Shown one piece after another: positions 48,569 to 57,157 of a DNA stretch of 64,000 nt. Position 1 is the stretch's first letter. Each line of letters opens with the position of its first letter. Location of the stretch: contig JANQNY010000045.1 of the NCBI GenBank assembly GCA_028279345.1, positions 3,569-67,568 on the forward strand, written 5' to 3'. Under the pieces are notes generated by a model, which saw only the letters and a list, made by a program, of their open reading frames with translations, was not told the DNA's origin and ran no database searches. Source of the stretch: Geminicoccaceae bacterium (GTDB lineage: Bacteria > Pseudomonadota > Alphaproteobacteria > Geminicoccales > Geminicoccaceae). The translations under genes and the position numbers were made by a program.

Positions 48569-49162
48569 GGCAAAGCCTCAGGCTTGCCGCACGGCGCACG
48601 GCTTCATGCTGCGGCACCCTGTCGCATTTGAGCTATTCCGTCGAGAGCCACCAAGGAACTACACGAAAGGTGTTGTCGGTGTATTCAGGGTAGCGCGTCG
48701 GCCGACGGAGGACTGCGGCACGGCACGCTTTCTGCCGATCGCGATGTGGACTCGATCGGTGCTGTCTTCACCGACGCCGACGAGGCAAGCAAGCACGACC
48801 ACCAGGGAAGGGTTGCGCCGCGCCGGAAGGAAAGATCAGCCTGGAGTTCATCGCCGCGGAACTCGACCGCATCATGGGCAAGCAAGGGGCTTCGCTGAAC
48901 GACGTGGCGGTGTTGTTGGCGATGACGGAGCCGCTGGAAGGGACCGTGCAGGGCATAGTCGACAAGGTTTGCGCCAGAGAGAAGGGCCGCGCTTGTTGGA
49001 TAAGTCTTGAAGAATATTCAGTATTAATTGATTTCTCCTGAAAATTTTTTGAATAATGCAACATTAAAATTAAACAAAATGTCTACCTATCTGTTTGAGA
49101 ATGGGCAAAATACCTTTTATTATGTTTTGCGAAGCTGCATTTATCTTGAATGCTTATCCTTC

Positions 49163-49855
49163 TTAATCAAATATTTCATCCATTATTTCGAACATGTCAA
49201 GCTGGTCAGCATCTTCATCCTCACGCTTTAACCAGCGAAGGACGTCAAAAGCCCGTGTTTTATCAGAAGAGGGGTGAAATTTCATTGCTTTCATTTTCAT
49301 GTCCTTCATATGAATCATTTCATGCAGTATAAAGAAGTTTCGGGAAAAAAGCTTTGCTTCGTCAGGATCTTTTATCCTGCTGGTAATTGCTTCTCGCTCA
49401 CGCATTCGTAGAAAAAAGAGAAATGCAGGCTCAATGATAAATAACTCGTTCTTTTGCGGCAGCCATTCAAGTATTTGAATTTTTCGCCTCTTTTGAAAGT
49501 CTTTCAGCGCACCAAGCATAGCATTAATGGAAGGCTTGGGAGGAACGCGCGCGGGATGAAGGTTCAGCTTCTCAATTCGTGCATCTATTTCAGCGCGGCT
49601 TAGAGAGAATTTTAGAGGATCAACTTGAAAGCATGATAAGACAACATCATACGTGGGATATCTGCGAGCCGTTTTTCGCGCGCCCTCGGTCAATATTTGA
49701 TGAATGTCGCGCATCTGCGAGTAATGCGCAGATGCCACATTGAAAAGTGCATTTATGCAATCATCCCGACCAAACGTAATGTTTTTCTGCTTAGCCTGTC
49801 GTATCGTCAGCGAATTCTTGTCAATCAGGAGCTGCTGACCAAATTTGCTGCGCAA
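49163..49855 (-). CDS. hypothetical protein with a C-terminal HExxH motif; possibly the C-terminal half of a frameshifted ATPase gene
   Basis: It starts at a TTG preceded by an in-frame TAA. The helical middle is wHTH-like (PSINAMLGALKDFQKRRKIQILEWL). LHEMIH lies at 49310-49324 and the tail is acidic. Confidence 0.55.
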   Translation of the reverse strand: MRSKFGQQLLIDKNSLTIRQAKQKNITFGRDDCINALFNVASAHYSQMRDIHQILTEGARKTARRYPTYDVVLSCFQVDPLKFSLSRAEIDARIEKLNLHPARVPPKPSINAMLGALKDFQKRRKIQILEWLPQKNELFIIEPAFLFFLRMREREAITSRIKDPDEAKLFSRNFFILHEMIHMKDMKMKAMKFHPSSDKTRAFDVLRWLKREDEDADQLDMFEIMDEIFD

Positions 49856-50750
49856 TTATTGGCAAGCCTACGCACTCACGGGCTAGCGTTTGAATAAGCT
49901 CGGTGCTTAAATGGGCGTTTATGAATTGGAAACCTCGGAAAAAAATCTGCGAAACGTCTTCATTTGACCAGTTGCCAGCTTCAAGGTGAGTCGTGCGGCC
50001 AACGAGATCTTTATTTGAATTTGCGATGTCTATGATATGGTGGGTAGTACCGATCACAATGACAGAAATTCCCTCATCGCAGAAGATTTTCCACTGCTGA
50101 AATATGGTTTTTTGTGTTTCTTCATTTAGATAATGAAAATCCTCCAAAACGAGTATTCGCTGACTCTGCTTAAGCAGGGGCACCAAGTGTGATGGGGAAG
50201 GGTCGGCCAATACGGTTTCTCGTATCTGTGTCGCTGCATGTTGGAGGCCGCCTTCGAGTCGCCCCCGGCCCAAAACACGCGCTAAGAGGTTCCATCCAAT
50301 CTCGTACTCGCCCTCCACGGCCAAACGCGCGTCACTTGTGTCTGTACTGCTATCGTTCGTGATCCGCACGGCGCCAGCCTCTTCGAGGGCGCTGCGCCAA
50401 ATTGCATCAGACGATCTTGTATGATCTGAACGAACAATTATTGGTGCCAATTTGGCTTCGTTGAGAACGTTTCTAAAAAGAGAACTCTTTCCGGTCTTGG
50501 ATGGCCCAGTAATAAGAACAATTTGTCCTTTATTGTCTAAACTTGTGCGCAGTCGTTTTTCGAAAAGGCCATTGTTTCGTCGGACGTACGTGATAGTGGG
50601 GGTTCCGTTTGTTTTGAAGAGTTGCGTTATTTCTTTTGGTGCAATATTTTTCATAGATTGTATCCGATAGATCTTCTGCGTGAAGGAATGGAAGCAAGGC
50701 GCTTGAAACGGATCCGCGAGTTTTTGGCACCTTGCACGTAAGTTTGGCAT
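49821..50750 (-). CDS. P-loop AAA+/STAND-like ATPase (ORC/Cdc6- or Arch_ATPase-like)
   Basis: Walker A GPSKTGKS (50484-50507), Walker B ILVLEDFH, and VIVIGTTHH sensor-like and GLPIIAQQ lid-like segments. An alternative start is the ATG at 50654 (MKNIAPKE...). Confidence 0.7.
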   Translation of the reverse strand: MPNLRARCQKLADPFQAPCFHSFTQKIYRIQSMKNIAPKEITQLFKTNGTPTITYVRRNNGLFEKRLRTSLDNKGQIVLITGPSKTGKSSLFRNVLNEAKLAPIIVRSDHTRSSDAIWRSALEEAGAVRITNDSSTDTSDARLAVEGEYEIGWNLLARVLGRGRLEGGLQHAATQIRETVLADPSPSHLVPLLKQSQRILVLEDFHYLNEETQKTIFQQWKIFCDEGISVIVIGTTHHIIDIANSNKDLVGRTTHLEAGNWSNEDVSQIFFRGFQFINAHLSTELIQTLARECVGLPIIAQQIWSAAPD

Positions 50751-50755
50751 GCATG

Positions 50756-53700
50756 TTATCGGAAATTCCGCCCCTTGGGCATCGCTTCTTGGGCGCGCTG
50801 GGGTTTCTCGGCGAGGCGTCGGTCGCTGCGTGCGTCTGGCGAGGGCTTCTTGACGGCATCGGCCCGTGCTGCGGCTCGTTCGAAGGTGCGGACGAGCCGT
50901 GGATCGGCGGCGGTCTTGCCGCGGTGGCCCTTGCCCGCGCGCTGGTCGGTAGCGGGGCGTTTGACTTCATCCGATGGAGGTATCGCCTTGTCGACGGCCT
51001 CGTAGGCGGCGTCGGGGTCGTCCGTGAGGAGCGCGAGCTTGTCGGTGAGGTCGATGAGCCGGCGCGCGACCAGGTGGATGACCTGGCCCGTGCGCTGCAC
51101 CTGGCCCTCACAGGCGAGCAGGCGGGCGGCCATGACGATGGGGCGGTAGCGATCGAGGAGCTTGGGCCAGACGACGAGGTTCACGATCCCGGTCTCGTCC
51201 TCGAGGGTCGAGAAGACGACGCCCTTGGCAGAGCCCGGTCGCTGGCGGATGAGCACGAGCCCTGCCGTACGGAAAGGCGCGCAGTCTTCCGCCTCTTGGA
51301 TGGCGCCGCAGGTCCGCCAGCCCTCTTGGGCAAGGAGCGGGCGCAGCACCTCGCACGGGTGCGCCTTCAAGGAGAGCCTGAGCCAGGTGTAGTCCTCGAC
51401 CACCGCCTCGCCCAAGGGCATCGGCGGCAGCTCGACATGCGGCTCGGGGTGCAATGGCGGCCGATTGGAGCCTGCGGGTGCCGCGAGTTCCGCTTGGTCG
51501 AAGAGCGGCAGCGGCTGGTCCTTTAAAGCCCTAACCGCCCATAGAGCCTGCCTGCGGACGAGATTGAGCGAGCCCATGGCGTCGGCTTCGGCGAGGCGTT
51601 CGAGCGTCGCTAGATCGAGTGTCGCACGCCGCTGTAGATCCTGGACATCGGCGAAGTCGCCGGTCGTCTCGCGCGCCTTGATGAGGCGCTCAATGGCGTC
51701 CTGGCGCAGGCCCTTGACCTGACGAAAGCCCAAGCGGAGCGCGTGGCGAGGGCCGGCGACGTGCACCGGACGCGGCTCGAGGCTGTTGTCCCAGAAGGAC
51801 CAGTTGACGTCGACCGGGCGCACCTCGACGGCGTGGTTCCGGGCGTCCCTGACGATCTGCGCGGGGCCGTAGAAGCCCATCGGCTGGGCGTTCAGGAGCG
51901 CTGCCGCGAAGACGTCCGGGTGGTGGCATTTGAGCCAGGCCGACACGTAGACGAGGTGCGCGAAGCTCGCCGCGTGGCTCTCCGGGAAGCCGTAATAGCC
52001 GAAGCCTTTGATCTGCTGAAAGCAGCGCTCTGCGAAGGCGGCGTCGTAGCCGCGCTCGACCATGCCGTCGACGAGCTTCTTGTGAAACTGCTCGAGCTTG
52101 CCGTTCTTGCGGAAGGACGCCATCGAGCGGCGTAGCTCGTCGGCTTCGGCGGGTGTGAAACCGGCAGCGACAATGGCGATCTTCATCGCCTGTTCTTGGA
52201 AGATCGGCACGCCCATGGTCTTGCCGAGCACCTGCTTCAGCGCGTCCGAGGGAAAGGTGACGGGCTCCTCGCCGTTGCGACGCCGGAGATAGGGGTGGAC
52301 CATGTCGCCCTGGATCGGGCCGGGCCGGACGATCGCTACCTCGATGACGAGGTCATAGAAGGTTTGTGGCCGGAGCCGCGGCAGCATCTGCATCTGCGCC
52401 CGGCTCTCGATCTGAAAGACGCCGATGGTGTCGGCATTGGAGATCATCGCATAGGTAAGCGGGTCGTCATCTGGAATCCAAAAAAGTGAAGGTGTTATAC
52501 GCTTATGCTCATGTAAAAGATCAAATGCGCGACGGATGCAGGTGAGCATGCCGAGCGCCAGCACGTCGATCTTGAGCATCTTGAGCGCGTCGAGGTCGTC
52601 CTTGTCCCATTCGACGACGGTGCGCTTGTCCATCGCCGCGTTCTCGATTGGCACCAGCTCGTCGAGGCGCGACTTGGCGATGACGAAACCGCCGACATGC
52701 TGCGAGAGGTGGCGCGGAAAGCCGATGAGCTGCTTGGCGAGCTCGATCGCCATGCGGATCGTCTCGTCCTGCATGTCGAGACCCGAGTCCCTCAGCTTCG
52801 CGGGATCGAGGCCTTCGGTGGACCAGCCCCAGACGGTCCGGGCGAGCGCGTCGACGGCATCGAGCGACAGCCCCAGCGTCTTACCTACCTCGCGGATCGC
52901 CGAGCGCGCGCGATAGCGGATGACGGTGGCGGCGAGCCCCGCATGCTCGCGGCCATAGGTCTCGTAGATGTGCTGGATCACCTCCTCGCGACGCTCGTGC
53001 TCGAAGTCGACGTCGATGTCGGGCGGCTCGTTCCTGGCGGTTGAGACGAAGCGCTCGAACAGAAGATCGAGGTGCGCCGGGTCGACGGCGGTGACGCCGA
53101 GGCAGTAGCAGACCGCCGAGTTCGCGGCTGAGCCGCGGCCCTGACAGAGGATCTCCTCGGAGCGGGCGAAGCGGACGACATCGTCGACGGTGAGGAAATA
53201 GGGTGCGTAGTCGAGCGAGCCGATGAGCTCGAGCTCGTGGCGAAGCTGTGCCTCGACCTGCTCGGAGAGCCCCTCGGGATAGCGCTCCGCAGCGCCCGCC
53301 CAGGTGCGGCGCTCGAGCTCCTGTTGCGGCGTCAGGCCGGCGTAACTCTCAGGCACCGGATAGTCGTAGGCGAGCTCGTCGAGGGAGAAGGTGCAGCGGG
53401 CAACGATATCGAGGCCGGCCTGGAGCGCGTCGGGATGGTCCTGGAACAGCCGAGCCATGTCCAAGGCACTCTTGAGATGGCGTTCGGCGTTGGGTTGGAG
53501 CCGGGAGCCGGCCTGATCGAGGGTGACGTGCTCGCGGATACAGGTGAGCACGTCCTGCAGCGGCCGGCGAAGGGCTGTGTGATAGAGAACGTCGCCCGTC
53601 GCCAGGAGCCGGCACTCGGTCTTGTTGGCGAGATCCTGGAGCCTCGCGAAGCGCGCGCGATCGCGCCCGTCGAAGCGGGGCGAGGCGGCCACATGCGCGC

Positions 53701-54142
53701 GGTCGGAGAAGACGCAGCGGAGCTCGGTGAGCCAATCCTTGAAGGTGCCGTCGGGCAGCTTGGGGAGGAGGGCGGCGATGGCCAGACCGTCGGCAGCGTC
53801 GGCATAGAGATCGTCGACGCCGAGCTGGCACTGGCCCTTGGGGGCGCGGCGGCGACCCTTGGAGATGAGCTTGGCGAGGCGGGCATAGGCCGGGCGGTCG
53901 ATCGGCCAGGCGAGCAGCGAGCGGCCGCAGGTGAAGTCGAGCCGCACGCCGGGAAGAAAGCGCAAGCCCGTATCCTTGGCGGTGACGTGCGCACGGACGA
54001 GGCCGGCAAAGCTGTTCCGGTCGGTGACGGCGAGCGCTTCGAGGCCCAGCTCGGCCGCGCGCAGCACCAGCTCCTCAGGGTGCGACCCGCCCTCGAGGAA
54101 GGTGAAGTTGGTGGTGACCTGAAGCTCGGCGTAGGCGGACAT
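50756..54142 (-). CDS. dnaE2: error-prone DNA polymerase (DnaE2 / ImuC)
   Basis: PHP domain (YAELQVTTNFTFLEGGSHPEEL) and Pol III alpha core (GSAANSAVCYCLGVT, PDIDVDFEH, GVFQIESRAQM). It lies downstream of imuA-imuB. Confidence 0.95.
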   Translation of the reverse strand: MSAYAELQVTTNFTFLEGGSHPEELVLRAAELGLEALAVTDRNSFAGLVRAHVTAKDTGLRFLPGVRLDFTCGRSLLAWPIDRPAYARLAKLISKGRRRAPKGQCQLGVDDLYADAADGLAIAALLPKLPDGTFKDWLTELRCVFSDRAHVAASPRFDGRDRARFARLQDLANKTECRLLATGDVLYHTALRRPLQDVLTCIREHVTLDQAGSRLQPNAERHLKSALDMARLFQDHPDALQAGLDIVARCTFSLDELAYDYPVPESYAGLTPQQELERRTWAGAAERYPEGLSEQVEAQLRHELELIGSLDYAPYFLTVDDVVRFARSEEILCQGRGSAANSAVCYCLGVTAVDPAHLDLLFERFVSTARNEPPDIDVDFEHERREEVIQHIYETYGREHAGLAATVIRYRARSAIREVGKTLGLSLDAVDALARTVWGWSTEGLDPAKLRDSGLDMQDETIRMAIELAKQLIGFPRHLSQHVGGFVIAKSRLDELVPIENAAMDKRTVVEWDKDDLDALKMLKIDVLALGMLTCIRRAFDLLHEHKRITPSLFWIPDDDPLTYAMISNADTIGVFQIESRAQMQMLPRLRPQTFYDLVIEVAIVRPGPIQGDMVHPYLRRRNGEEPVTFPSDALKQVLGKTMGVPIFQEQAMKIAIVAAGFTPAEADELRRSMASFRKNGKLEQFHKKLVDGMVERGYDAAFAERCFQQIKGFGYYGFPESHAASFAHLVYVSAWLKCHHPDVFAAALLNAQPMGFYGPAQIVRDARNHAVEVRPVDVNWSFWDNSLEPRPVHVAGPRHALRLGFRQVKGLRQDAIERLIKARETTGDFADVQDLQRRATLDLATLERLAEADAMGSLNLVRRQALWAVRALKDQPLPLFDQAELAAPAGSNRPPLHPEPHVELPPMPLGEAVVEDYTWLRLSLKAHPCEVLRPLLAQEGWRTCGAIQEAEDCAPFRTAGLVLIRQRPGSAKGVVFSTLEDETGIVNLVVWPKLLDRYRPIVMAARLLACEGQVQRTGQVIHLVARRLIDLTDKLALLTDDPDAAYEAVDKAIPPSDEVKRPATDQRAGKGHRGKTAADPRLVRTFERAAARADAVKKPSPDARSDRRLAEKPQRAQEAMPKGRNFR

Positions 54143-54154
54143 GGGAGCGGACGA

Positions 54155-54568
54155 TCAACCGCCGAGCGAGACGACGCGGGCGTCGAAGCGCGTACCTGCG
54201 ACGGACGCCCGCAAGCGCCTGTCGTCGGTGACGAGCGAGGCATCGGCTGCCTCGGCAAGCGCCAGATAAACGCAGTCGTAAATCGGATGATCGAGCTCAA
54301 GCATGATGGGCACGGCCTCGTCGATGAGGTCGTGCGTCCGCACGAGTACCGGCACGCCATGTTTGAGACAACGCATCGTGTCGTCGAGATCGATCCGGTC
54401 GATCTCGCCGCGACGCAGCTTCTTCCAGAGCGCGTTCGTGACTTCGAGGATGAGGAGATCAGGCGCCAGCAAGTCGGAAGCATGATCGATGAGCCATAAC
54501 GCATCGTCCGTCCGCTCCTCTTGAACGAACCACTTCAAGACGACGCTTGCGTCGAGAACGATGGTCAA
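54155..54568 (-). CDS. vapC: PIN-domain toxin (VapC family)
   Basis: IVLDASVVLKW (Asp), EVTNAL (Glu), IYDCVYLALAE and LVTDD acidic residues. The TTG start overlaps the vapB stop (TTGA). Confidence 0.85.
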   Translation of the reverse strand: MTIVLDASVVLKWFVQEERTDDALWLIDHASDLLAPDLLILEVTNALWKKLRRGEIDRIDLDDTMRCLKHGVPVLVRTHDLIDEAVPIMLELDHPIYDCVYLALAEAADASLVTDDRRLRASVAGTRFDARVVSLGG

Positions 54569-54798
54569 CGATCGCGATCCTCGCGGATCAAGAGTGTGCT
54601 GTTCGTCTGTGTACGGCGGGCAGTACGGGTACGGATATCGGCTGCTGCTGCTTTGAACGCCCCGATGTCCACGGGACGAACTGCGTTGGTCACAATGTCT
54701 CTCAGCTCCGCCTCGAGGGAACGATGATGGTGCCGTGCTCGGTTCCGAAGGCGCTCGATGACATCATCGTCGAGATTGCGGATGGTGACGTTACCCAT
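54565..54798 (-). CDS. vapB: antitoxin, FitA/Arc-like ribbon-helix-helix (VapB family)
   Basis: MGNVTIRNLDDDVIERLRNRARHHHRSLEAELRDIV is the classic plasmid-stability antitoxin N-terminus. GGAG lies upstream. An alternative start is at 54825. Confidence 0.8.
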   Translation of the reverse strand: MGNVTIRNLDDDVIERLRNRARHHHRSLEAELRDIVTNAVRPVDIGAFKAAAADIRTRTARRTQTNSTLLIREDRDR

Positions 54799-54848
54799 GG
54801 CCGAGGCTCCGAACGGAACAGTCATGATGATAGCATAATGCAAGCATG

Positions 54849-56369
54849 TCAGGCGAACAGACCGTCCAGGGTCCAGCGTGGCGGGGCGCCGGTGCCGAAG
54901 GCGCCTTCTCGGCGGACCCAGAGGCGGCGACCGTCTGCCAGGTCGAGGCGGTAGTAGTCGCGCGGCTGGCCTTCGGGGTCGCGCCACCATTCGGGCTCGA
55001 TCCGTTCGGGGCCTTCGGCAGCGACGACATCGGCGAGCCCGCCGCCGAAACGTAGCCGTCGCGGCGCGCCGTCGGGGACCGCGGCGACGACGCCGATCGG
55101 TCGTGGCTCTTCCAGGAGACGCAGCGGGCGTGGCCCCCGCGTCGGCCAGGGCGCCGGCGAGGGGGCGTCGAGCGCCGGGACGAGCCGAATGGTGCGCTCG
55201 GGCCAATGGCTGTCGTTGGCGCGCAAGCGGCGGACACGGTCGATGCCCAGCCGCTGGGTGAGGCGTTCGGTGAGCCGCGCCTCGGCTTCGCTTCTGGCTT
55301 CGCCACCGCTGCCACCATCGGAATGGAGCTGGCGGGCGCCGAGCTGCTCGGTTCGGGTCGCCGCGAGCCGCAAACATTCGATGCCGAAGCCGAGGTCGAG
55401 CCCGTCTAGATCGTCGCGAAAGAGGCGAAAGAGCGCCTTGGGTTCGCGGTTTGCACAGGCTGTTCGGACCTGAAGGCGATGCAGCGCGCCGTCGAGGCGT
55501 GCCAAGTCGAGCTGCAGCACACGGGCGCCGAGCTGGGCGTGCTCGAGCACGCGGCAGAGGCTTGCGAGTGCTTCGCCGAGTGCTGCTTCGATACCCTCGG
55601 TCGTACCCAGAGGCTCGGCCCAGGCAAGGCGCACGGCGTGGCACGAAGGTGCCGCGAGCGCGGTGAACGGCACCTCCATGCGACCCATGAGCTGATGTAG
55701 CCGTTGGACGGGAACGGCGCCGAACCGGGTCGTCAGGGTACTGTGCGGGACAGCTTCGAGATCGCGCACACGCTTGAAGCCCAGTCGCACGAGCCCTTGC
55801 GCGGTAGCGGGCTCGAGCCTCAGGGCGGTGATGGGCAGGTTCAGCATGGCGGTCTCGGTGCGCGTGCCGGCGAGCACGCCACCCGTACCGAAGCGTGCCC
55901 AGGCCCAGGCGGCGGCAGGATTGGCAGCGCTCGCCGCACGCATCGCGAAGCCCAAGGGCGCGAGGCGTGTTTCGAGATCGGCCATGAGATTCGCCTCGCC
56001 GCCCGCGAGATGTGCGCAGCCGGTGATATCGAGCAGCACGCCGTCGTCGCCGTCGGTGGCAGTCCAAGGGGTATAGCGACCGCACCAGAGTGCTAGTGCC
56101 TCGAGGGCTTGGGCATCACGCTTGGGATCGGCGTCGGCCACGGCGAGCCCGGGGCAGATGGCGCGGGCATCGGCGAGGCCCAGACCGCAGTGCAGCTTGG
56201 TCGCCGCGGCCTCTCGGGTGAGCGCGTAGAGCCGGGGGCCGCTCGCCTCCATACGCAGCAGCGCGAAGGGCTTTCCCGCGTGATCGGGTTCACCCGTGCG
56301 CCGCAGCTGCAGCCGAAAACGATCCGTGGGCCAGGTCGGCAACCAGATCGAAACGTAGCGTCGGCTCAT
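54849..56369 (-). CDS. imuB: Y-family polymerase-like protein ImuB
   Basis: MSRRYVSIWLPTWPTDRF N-terminus is typical of ImuB, and the gene lies between imuA and dnaE2. I used the ATG at 56369. Confidence 0.9.
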   Translation of the reverse strand: MSRRYVSIWLPTWPTDRFRLQLRRTGEPDHAGKPFALLRMEASGPRLYALTREAAATKLHCGLGLADARAICPGLAVADADPKRDAQALEALALWCGRYTPWTATDGDDGVLLDITGCAHLAGGEANLMADLETRLAPLGFAMRAASAANPAAAWAWARFGTGGVLAGTRTETAMLNLPITALRLEPATAQGLVRLGFKRVRDLEAVPHSTLTTRFGAVPVQRLHQLMGRMEVPFTALAAPSCHAVRLAWAEPLGTTEGIEAALGEALASLCRVLEHAQLGARVLQLDLARLDGALHRLQVRTACANREPKALFRLFRDDLDGLDLGFGIECLRLAATRTEQLGARQLHSDGGSGGEARSEAEARLTERLTQRLGIDRVRRLRANDSHWPERTIRLVPALDAPSPAPWPTRGPRPLRLLEEPRPIGVVAAVPDGAPRRLRFGGGLADVVAAEGPERIEPEWWRDPEGQPRDYYRLDLADGRRLWVRREGAFGTGAPPRWTLDGLFA

Positions 56370-57054
56370 CGAAGACCACCTCGAAACGGCGCGGAACAGC
56401 GCCCTTGGCGCGCCAGAGTTCGGCACTCCAGGTGAGCGGACCAAGCTCGCCGGGCCAGCGGGAGAGGGACGGTGCGGGTCGGACCCGCCAGCGGGTGACG
56501 GCAGCGCTGGGCTCGAGCAACGTGGCTGCCGGCCTGAGCAGCAGCCCGACGCCACCACCGGTTTCGGCGGCGAGGTGCAGCCGGCGGCTCCTGAAGAGGT
56601 CGAGCCGCTCCACCTCGCCGACGACGGCGGTGACCGCGGTCGAACGCAGCGCCTCTTCCATGGCCCAGAGGACCTGCGCGTCGTTCGCGCCGTCGACGAG
56701 GAGAATGCGGTCGGGATCGAGACCGAACGCCATGAGCCCCGGGCCGTGGAGCATGCCCTCGTCACGGCGCCGCCGGCGGTGCTGGCACCAGACAACGAGA
56801 CCAGGCCGGACCCGGGCAACGCGCCCGGCGAGTGCTGCCGTAAAGCCCGCAGCACCGCGCCCACCAACCTCGTGTATGGCTTGGAGCCGCAGACCGCCGC
56901 CGGGAAGTGCGCGATCGAGGGCCACGGCGCCCAGCTCTGCTACGGTGGCGCATGTTCTGCTGCAGCGTCCGCCAAGCCGGGCCATGGCGGCCCGCAAGGC
57001 CAGAAGATCGGCGGTAGGATCGGACGCAGCCGACAGCAGGCATACGTCGTTCAT
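56290..57054 (-). CDS. imuA: RecA/SulA-like SOS mutagenesis protein ImuA
   Basis: LPGGGLRLQAIHEV...VVWC...LHGPGLMAFGLDPDRILLV is typical of ImuA. It is the first gene after the LexA boxes. Its 3' end overlaps imuB by 80 nt. Confidence 0.85.
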   Translation of the reverse strand: MNDVCLLSAASDPTADLLALRAAMARLGGRCSRTCATVAELGAVALDRALPGGGLRLQAIHEVGGRGAAGFTAALAGRVARVRPGLVVWCQHRRRRRDEGMLHGPGLMAFGLDPDRILLVDGANDAQVLWAMEEALRSTAVTAVVGEVERLDLFRSRRLHLAAETGGGVGLLLRPAATLLEPSAAVTRWRVRPAPSLSRWPGELGPLTWSAELWRAKGAVPRRFEVVFDEPTLRFDLVADLAHGSFSAAAAAHG

Positions 57055-57096: not shown

Positions 57097-57111
57097 GTTC
57101 TTGAAATGTTC
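57097..57111. promoter_or_regulatory. alphaproteobacterial LexA (SOS) box GTTC-N7-GTTC
   Basis: Read directly as GTTCttgaaatGTTC, 43 nt upstream of the imuA ATG, within an AT-rich promoter-like stretch. Confidence 0.8.
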
Positions 57112-57142
57112 TATAACCGTTTTGATGTCTGTCAAGCAGATA

Positions 57143-57157
57143 GAACAAAAATAGAAC
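57143..57157. promoter_or_regulatory. second LexA (SOS) box, GAAC-N7-GAAC (opposite orientation)
   Basis: Read directly as GAACaaaaataGAAC, 89 nt upstream of the imuA ATG. Confidence 0.75.

Follow-up and report, generated by a model that had tools for sequence, protein, structure and literature searches.

A toxin-antitoxin (TA) module, vapBC, lies between imuB and dnaE2 in a stretch of 64,000 nucleotides from a Geminicoccaceae bacterium (assembly GCA_028279345.1, contig JANQNY010000045.1, positions 3,569 to 67,568), which is called the window here. The placement of these genes is not a matter of chance; the same order recurs in dozens of other genomes. The explanation favored here is that vapBC is a functional type II module and a long-standing resident of the alphaproteobacterial imuB-dnaE2 junction, not a one-off insertion, and that it is a lodger persisting there mainly by addiction and hitch-hiking. 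Taken as a whole, this explanation is given a probability of about 60%.

The imuA-imuB-dnaE2 genes form a compact LexA-regulated operon in Caulobacter, Pseudomonas, and others. In many bacteria without UmuDC, damage-induced mutation arises mainly from the ImuA-ImuB-DnaE2 mutasome, and plain LexA control is assumed for its expression. The window shares with this compact cassette the gene order and the GTTC-N7-GTTC LexA boxes, but imuB and dnaE2 are separated by about 700 nt, in which two additional genes and probably an additional promoter are situated. On the minus strand of the window the order is imuA, imuB, vapB, vapC, and dnaE2:

56290..57054, minus strand: imuA, 254 aa, ATG at 57054, with a below-cut-off match to NCBIfam NF033429 (ImuA_translesion) at an expect value (E) of 2.1e-18.
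54849..56369, minus strand: imuB, 506 aa, ATG at 56369 and stop codon TGA at 54851-54849, matching the Pfam IMS family PF00817 at 32 bits (cut-off 23.2).
54565..54798, minus strand: vapB, 77 aa, FitA-like_RHH antitoxin, PF22513, E 5.5e-17.
54155..54568, minus strand: vapC, 137 aa, TTG start, PIN toxin, PF01850, E 1.5e-13, 51.8 bits (cut-off 23.6).
54143..54154, minus strand: vapC-dnaE2 spacer, 12 nt, with neither a Shine-Dalgarno-like sequence nor a hairpin.
50756..54142, minus strand: dnaE2, 1128 aa, ATG at 54142, matching NCBIfam NF004225 ("error-prone DNA polymerase") at 1415.7 bits (cut-off 939).

A spacer of 50 nt lies between the stop codon of imuB and the ATG of vapB. The stop codon of vapB and the start codon of vapC overlap in the sequence TTGA, and the same overlap is found in another genome of the family, G024 (G and L numbers are used below for genomes and loci). 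An earlier sequence-only reading of this DNA had given the imuB stop, the two small genes, the dnaE2 start, the TTGA overlap, and the 12-nt spacing at these positions, and all of them hold on re-reading. Its assignment of the two genes to a ribbon-helix-helix (RHH) antitoxin and a PIN toxin is borne out by PF22513 and PF01850, and the lower G+C content it had noticed corresponds to a dip to 0.58-0.61 across 54200-54800 against about 0.70 in the flanks.

The pair is an intact RHH plus PIN type II TA, and judging from its residues and its predicted structure VapC looks active. The closest solved relative of VapC by sequence is the PIN protein PAE0151 (2fe1; E 7.6e-12). Residues D6, E42, D98, and D116 of VapC align with the catalytic acidic residues of PAE0151 and are invariant in 113 homologues, 19 of which are linked to the cassette. 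The AlphaFold model of VapC, built with 35 sequences, has a mean predicted local distance difference test score (pLDDT) of 95. It matches 2fe1 with a Foldseek E of 3.6e-09 and template modeling (TM) scores of 0.80/0.84, and matches several VapC toxins of M. tuberculosis with TM scores of 0.64-0.74. The sequence identity to any solved VapC is 30% or less. The sequence-only reading had named an inactive VapC as a finding that would speak against it; this does not apply, because the four active-site acidic residues are intact and the PIN model is confident. The C-terminal motif DSxxLIREDRDR of VapB also occurs in cassette-linked homologues. A subfamily search of the window genome found this VapC as the single member, and a look-up across public assemblies returned no record of the exact VapC protein.

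These features are those of the FitAB/VapBC systems, such as PAE0151 (2fe1), the VapBCs of M. tuberculosis, and FitAB of N. gonorrhoeae (2bsq). There, too, the gene for an RHH antitoxin overlaps a downstream gene for a PIN toxin, and the PIN fold with four acidic catalytic residues is the same as in the VapC of the window. Operator-type repeats or palindromes are expected upstream in such systems, and operator-like repeats are present upstream of vapB in the window as well. The module of the window does not stand alone but is embedded inside another operon.

The long residence of the module is indicated by a survey of Geminicoccaceae. Among 107 species genomes, 89 have dnaE2, and 53 imuB-dnaE2 junctions were read. 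The gap between the two genes ranges from 5 to 2393 nt, and its contents are as follows:

Compact gap of 5-20 nt: 8 genomes.
Intact vapB-vapC pair, co-oriented and immediately preceding dnaE2: at least 14 genomes in 5 genera (the window, G024, G107, G053, G045, G047, G046, G116, G111, G121, G115, G114, G120, and G117).
vapC with vapB absent (G043, L110) or frameshifted (G050, L108): metagenome-assembled genomes (MAGs).
vapB with a truncated vapC: G003, G005, and G119.
Partial pair: G056.
Antisense Uma2 nuclease-like gene: six genomes in one genus, at L006, L121, L124, L126, and L127 (G016, G096, G099, G095, and G102), with a degenerate form at L119 (G097).
Co-oriented CCDC90-like coiled-coil membrane protein gene: five genomes, at L007, L122, L131, L137, and L123 (G010, G062, G068, G058, and G013).
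Antisense pair of PIN (PF01850, E 1.7e-13) and RHH genes with a 436-aa open reading frame (ORF) lacking a family assignment: G018 (L013), in the gap of 2393 nt.
Xre helix-turn-helix (HTH) gene (108-122 aa; PF01381, E 2e-11) between imuB and vapB: G116, G111, and G122 (L098, L099, and L112).

The Uma2-family gene encodes a putative endonuclease of 187 aa (PF05685, E 3.8e-29). It replaces the TA in gaps of about 680-1250 nt. The CCDC90-like proteins are 94-165 aa long with a C-terminal membrane helix, and their weak CCDC90-like/DUF1640 match is under the Pfam cut-off. In G122, only the Xre-HTH gene and a FitA-like remnant of 74 aa remain. In G018, SOS transcription would have to oppose the antisense pair. 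Where vapC stands without an intact vapB, in G043 and G050, this would be tolerable only if VapC is harmless, if it is neutralized in trans, or if the assembly is wrong. The TA is thus patchy among genomes that keep the polymerase gene; a single family, and even a single genus, includes compact junctions along with remnants and intact pairs.

Within the genus of the window, G003 and G005 carry at the same position a vapB that is 59-64% identical to that of the window, and the adjoining dnaE2 is 77% identical. Both share one internal deletion of vapC, which leaves a remnant of 37 aa without E42, D98, and D116, while vapB is kept. The presence of an orthologous vapB at the same spot indicates that the pair predates the split of these species. 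In two other congeners, G001 and G004, the gaps are 85 and 145 nt, and the gap of the nearest genus, G103, is also short; these gaps span 85-170 nt and contain no TA. Local alignment for vapC vestiges in the gaps of G004, G001, and G103 gave no score above those of shuffled sequences (31-52 of 500 shuffles were as good, and 164-470 of 500 for G103), and a past loss of the TA in these three genomes is not claimed. In the cassette loci of the family, and in several others, the stop codon of vapC is at most 35 nt from the start of dnaE2 or overlaps it. Larger distances are filled by another ORF or by a DUF3775 extension.

The association extends beyond the family. A GTDB-wide pattern scan with the VapC alignment yielded 420 relatives, and among the best 80 loci, which were read, four are cassette-linked (L019, L023, L024, and L030), all in alphaproteobacterial MAGs. 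In an even sample of 400 alphaproteobacterial genomes, 66 copies of the VapC subfamily (E of 1e-10 or lower) were found in 48 genomes. Eleven of these copies (17%), from 11 genomes of at least nine families, are directly upstream of dnaE2. Ten of the 11 loci read as imuB-vapB-vapC-dnaE2, and in the remaining one, G249, the contig ends before vapB and imuB. Variants among these loci include extra orphan copies of vapB and DUF3775 extensions. The sequence-only reading had proposed a survey of imuB-dnaE2 junctions and had described the module as inserted. The same layout recurs across alphaproteobacteria, and an insertion private to this genome is not borne out: two congeners have an orthologous vapB, and the layout is present in many alphaproteobacterial families. 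A full-text literature search returned no description of a TA between imuB and dnaE2.

In-frame fusions of VapC to a C-terminal DUF3775 domain (PF12616, E 4.6e-18) are present at L019 (3001-3855) and at L023/L165; the ORFs, of 284 and about 274 aa, end at the start of dnaE2.

Over short distances, the module diverges in step with dnaE2 and is under purifying selection. Between G121 and G115, the synonymous divergence (dS) is 0.224 for vapB, 0.237 for vapC, and 0.222 for dnaE2; between G114 and G120, it is 0.393, 0.375, and 0.396, respectively. In orthologous pairs, the ratio of nonsynonymous to synonymous divergence (dN/dS) lies at 0.16-0.34 in vapC and at 0.02-0.50 in vapB. In the longer term, the module is replaced by non-orthologous vapBC within sharp borders. 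In genus g45, the N-termini of DnaE2 are 78-93% identical, while the VapCs of G116, G111, and G114/G120 are 30-42% identical. In genus g38, the pair G045/G046 shows an identity of 86% in DnaE2 and of 36% in VapC. Across swapped loci of the two genera, a DnaE2 identity of 86-90% goes with a VapC identity of only 36-42%. The flanks in g45, that is, the 3' part of imuB and the 5' part of dnaE2, keep an identity of 82-92% as far as the junction. From this, the exchange seems to have been limited to the gap, with g45 as the clearest case; between G045 and G046 the last 120 nt of imuB drop to 72% identity. Recombination tracts in the flanks were considered as the cause of the swapping and rejected, as no clear flank mosaic was seen overall.

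Decay proceeds mostly toxin first and leaves an orphan vapB; the reverse is seen in two MAGs, in which vapB is missing or frameshifted. Orphan vapB copies are also found upstream of the present pair in G053, G114, G120, G278, and L023, and these look like relics of earlier occupants.

The tree of VapC, with 131 rows, 30 of them cassette-linked, and 142 columns, is poorly resolved. The label "cassette-linked" requires 7 changes on it; shuffled labels require 27.2, with none of 500 shuffles as low. At least two changes are forced by well-supported branches. A single cassette-linked clade was not rejected by the approximately unbiased (AU) test (p 0.66; p 0.37 with an earlier set), which does not demonstrate one clade. 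The constrained tree scored above the short free search, and this indicates that 142 columns resolve the tree weakly.

The expression of the module can be considered from the signals around the cassette:

57143..57157, minus strand: LexA box 1, GTTCTATTTTTGTTC, an exact GTTC-N7-GTTC match upstream of the imuA promoter.
57130..57135, minus strand: TTGACA, a hexamer resembling a -35 element, in the putative SOS promoter P_imuA; it was read from the sequence between both LexA boxes.
57097..57111, minus strand: LexA box 2, GAACATTTCAAGAAC (minus strand), matching GTTC-N7-GTTC exactly when read on the plus strand; it covers the presumed -10 region and lies 43 nt upstream of the imuA ATG.
54824..54852, minus strand: promoter-like site CTGACA-17 nt-CATCAT from a consensus scan, whose -35 hexamer overlaps the stop codon of imuB.
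54827..54847, minus strand: tandem operator-like repeats ATGCTTGCAT-T-ATGCTATCAT of the ATGCTwkCAT type, directly after the stop codon of imuB.

Predicted LexA operators front the imuA-imuB-vapB-vapC-dnaE2 cassette. The two boxes are the only exact GTTC-N7-GTTC matches in the window. A LexA box in the imuB-vapB spacer was considered and rejected, as the candidate GTTCCGTTC has the wrong spacing.

Judging from its sequence, the 50-nt imuB-vapB spacer very probably contains a promoter and an operator of the pair's own. The consensus scan returned two promoter-like sites in 7.1 kb, against 0.6 expected. For the operator, 109 homologous vapB genes, the majority located far from any mutagenesis cassette, were compared over their 90 upstream nt. 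Half-sites of the GCTAKCA type are present in 83 of these 109 regions, against 1 of 109 control segments from coding sequence. They cluster 20-50 nt before the start codon of vapB; 38 of the 83 regions have two or more of them, often as palindromes such as TGCTATCATTTTTGATAGCA. The promoter or operator near vapB that the sequence-only reading had suggested looking for is thus represented by a promoter-like site and tandem repeats. That reading had also set an independent vapBC promoter combined with a terminator after imuB against co-transcription on SOS induction. The promoter-like half of this combination was found; the terminator was not, as none is predicted.

From imuA to the end of dnaE2, the consensus scan found no terminator-like site except one on the opposite strand inside dnaE2. 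Neither the imuB-vapB nor the vapC-dnaE2 junction shows a stable RNA structure or a U-tract; the fold z-scores are -1.40 and +1.69, the value of -1.40 being that of the vapC-dnaE2 spacer. With no terminator and no stable hairpin at either junction, SOS-driven read-through into vapBC is plausible. If vapBC has its own promoter, SOS would be one of two inputs, as in the yafNO system of E. coli.

The following mechanism is proposed. P_imuA would be repressed by LexA and would read through all five genes. VapB or VapBC, acting at the tandem repeats, would repress the second promoter, P_vapB, from which vapB, vapC, and dnaE2 would be read. VapB is taken as a FitA-like RHH repressor and VapC as a PIN-domain RNase. 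Because dnaE2 starts 12 nt after the stop codon of vapC and appears to have no ribosome-binding site of its own, it would be transcribed from both promoters, and its translation is probably coupled to that of vapC; the lack of a Shine-Dalgarno-like leader at this distance makes termination-reinitiation coupling plausible. The vapBC pair would not be part of translesion synthesis. It would persist mainly via addiction and by traveling with the cassette, which is itself mobile. A second, LexA-independent input to the expression of dnaE2 would be a likely side effect. The mobility of the cassette is underlined by the presence of dnaE2 homologues on 893 plasmid records of PLSDB, 398 of which are predicted to be conjugative.

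Several observations weigh against this explanation. Persistence in many families and purifying selection are equally expected of a selected functional link. A chimeric query of VapC and DnaE2 found no joined place among the about 890 PLSDB records with dnaE2, and the lack of a plasmid-borne vapC-dnaE2 pair is a poor fit to simple hitch-hiking on mobile cassettes. The VapC of the window is not robustly placed with the cassette-linked VapCs, and its nearest homologues (48-51% identity) are not cassette-linked. The internal promoter matches the consensus at only 9 of 12 positions. The half-site motif was defined post hoc, after the data had been inspected, and the comparison is descriptive, though the contrast is large. 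The read-through, the promoter inside the operon, and the coupling of translation are predictions from sequence.

The first alternative is that selection maintains vapBC as a regulatory part of the cassette. In that case, its proteolysis-sensitive promoter would give dnaE2 a LexA-independent stress input, or SOS-driven VapC would slow translation and growth during repair. This would agree with the concentration of 17% of the subfamily copies of the 400-genome sample at one junction, the clustering of cassette-linked VapCs on the tree with a single clade not rejected, and the purifying selection on the pair. The tight spacing between vapC and dnaE2 (at most 35 nt, or overlap), the lack of a ribosome-binding site of dnaE2 in the window, and the fact that replacement modules are again vapBC of the same subfamily point in the same direction. 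However, many relatives have compact junctions of 5-20 nt without a TA, some have a decayed TA in a retained cassette (G003, G005, and G119), and unrelated cargo (Uma2, CCDC90-like, Xre HTH, and antisense PIN-RHH) occupies the same site. These observations argue against the necessity of the TA. In the E. coli analogue, the dinB-yafNO TA is likewise dispensable; it is retained in about 50-60% of strains, after at least three losses (PMC3105422). A selected regulatory role has a modest probability, well below that of the favored explanation.

It is doubtful that one VapBC lineage has co-evolved with the cassettes as a working part. The junction would then be a dedicated "TA slot", with DnaE2 gated by antitoxin proteolysis as well as by LexA, and the VapC RNase might also pause growth during mutagenic repair. 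As far as sequence comparison can indicate, the addiction or stabilization alternative of the sequence-only reading agrees better with the evolutionary pattern than would a dedicated part in mutagenesis.

A recent and private horizontal insertion of a mobile vapBC, with no history at the site, is improbable. The base composition is consistent with it: the G+C contents of 0.585 and 0.611 are under those of the flanks, and the G+C content at third codon positions (GC3) is 0.615 in vapB, against 0.768 in vapC, 0.765 in imuA, 0.781 in imuB, and 0.851 in dnaE2, or about 0.77-0.85 for the other genes. The short gaps without a TA in G001, G004, and G103 and the position of the nearest VapC homologues outside cassettes would also be expected. 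On the other hand, the orthologous vapB with a vapC remnant at the same position in G003 and G005, and the wide distribution of the layout, contradict a lack of history at the site.

Even less probable is a domesticated or inert pair, in which VapC would be no toxin and VapB would be retained for transcriptional control or as an anti-addiction antitoxin. Orphan vapB genes are kept at the site in several relatives, and G043 and G050 have vapC without an intact vapB, as such a pair would allow. Against it stand the four invariant acidic residues, the confident PIN model, the dN/dS of vapC, and the maintenance of the TTGA-coupled antitoxin-toxin architecture. TA systems can act in defense, but an SOS-triggered abortive-infection or defense module, in which DNA damage by phage or prophage raises the toxin, is very improbable here: PADLOC gave no convincing match (only VapB against a SIR2 model, E 0.0015, 15.8 bits), nothing phage-related was found at the locus, and the association is specific to dnaE2, not to defense islands.

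The closest precedent for a TA lodged in this way is dinB-yafN-yafO-yafP of E. coli, in which a type II TA is likewise co-directional inside a LexA-controlled error-prone polymerase operon. Transcription of yafNO from the dinB SOS promoter and from its own proximal promoter was shown experimentally (PMC2814082); for vapBC of the window, two promoters are predicted from the sequence. Patchiness takes the form of repeated clean loss in E. coli, and of a decay series alongside compact junctions in the family of the window. The TA families are different, YafN with the ribosome-dependent interferase YafO in E. coli and RHH VapB with PIN VapC in the window, and so are the polymerases, Pol IV and the ImuA-ImuB-DnaE2 mutasome. 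The TA is downstream of dinB in E. coli, but upstream of the catalytic polymerase gene in the window, so its promoter would feed the polymerase. Unlike the E. coli case, the association described here spans many families, with non-orthologous swaps at one site. A TA nested in an SOS polymerase operon is already known from E. coli; the comparative pattern, in which one site sees turnover, is broader than expected.

This comparative result is notable: about one-sixth of the subfamily VapCs in the alphaproteobacterial sample lie at one junction, with swaps and toxin-first decay. The junction is a natural system for studying the persistence and mutual replacement of TA modules, and it also bears on whether dinB-yafNO reflects a general affinity of TA for mutagenic-polymerase operons. 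If the proposed arrangement is true, a TA with its own promoter upstream of dnaE2 would add a second control input and tie an RNase toxin to the SOS response.

The other genes of the cassette show some additional features. The match of imuA to NF033429, at 66.9 bits, is under the 150-bit cut-off of the model, and SulA-like matches are found as well. The 3' end of imuA and the start of imuB overlap out of frame by 80 nt (56290-56369). The C-terminal motif W-x-L-x-G-x-F-x* of ImuB is common to all relatives compared. DnaE2 contains the Pfam domains DNA_pol3_alpha, finger, HHH_6, and PHP. The coding sequence of dnaE2 has a G+C content of about 0.67, but it is 0.56-0.58 at 52250-52700, which could be a recombination patch. 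Directly downstream of dnaE2, an AT-rich stretch (48995-50755, G+C 0.43-0.57) contains minus-strand ORFs of 309 and 230 aa.

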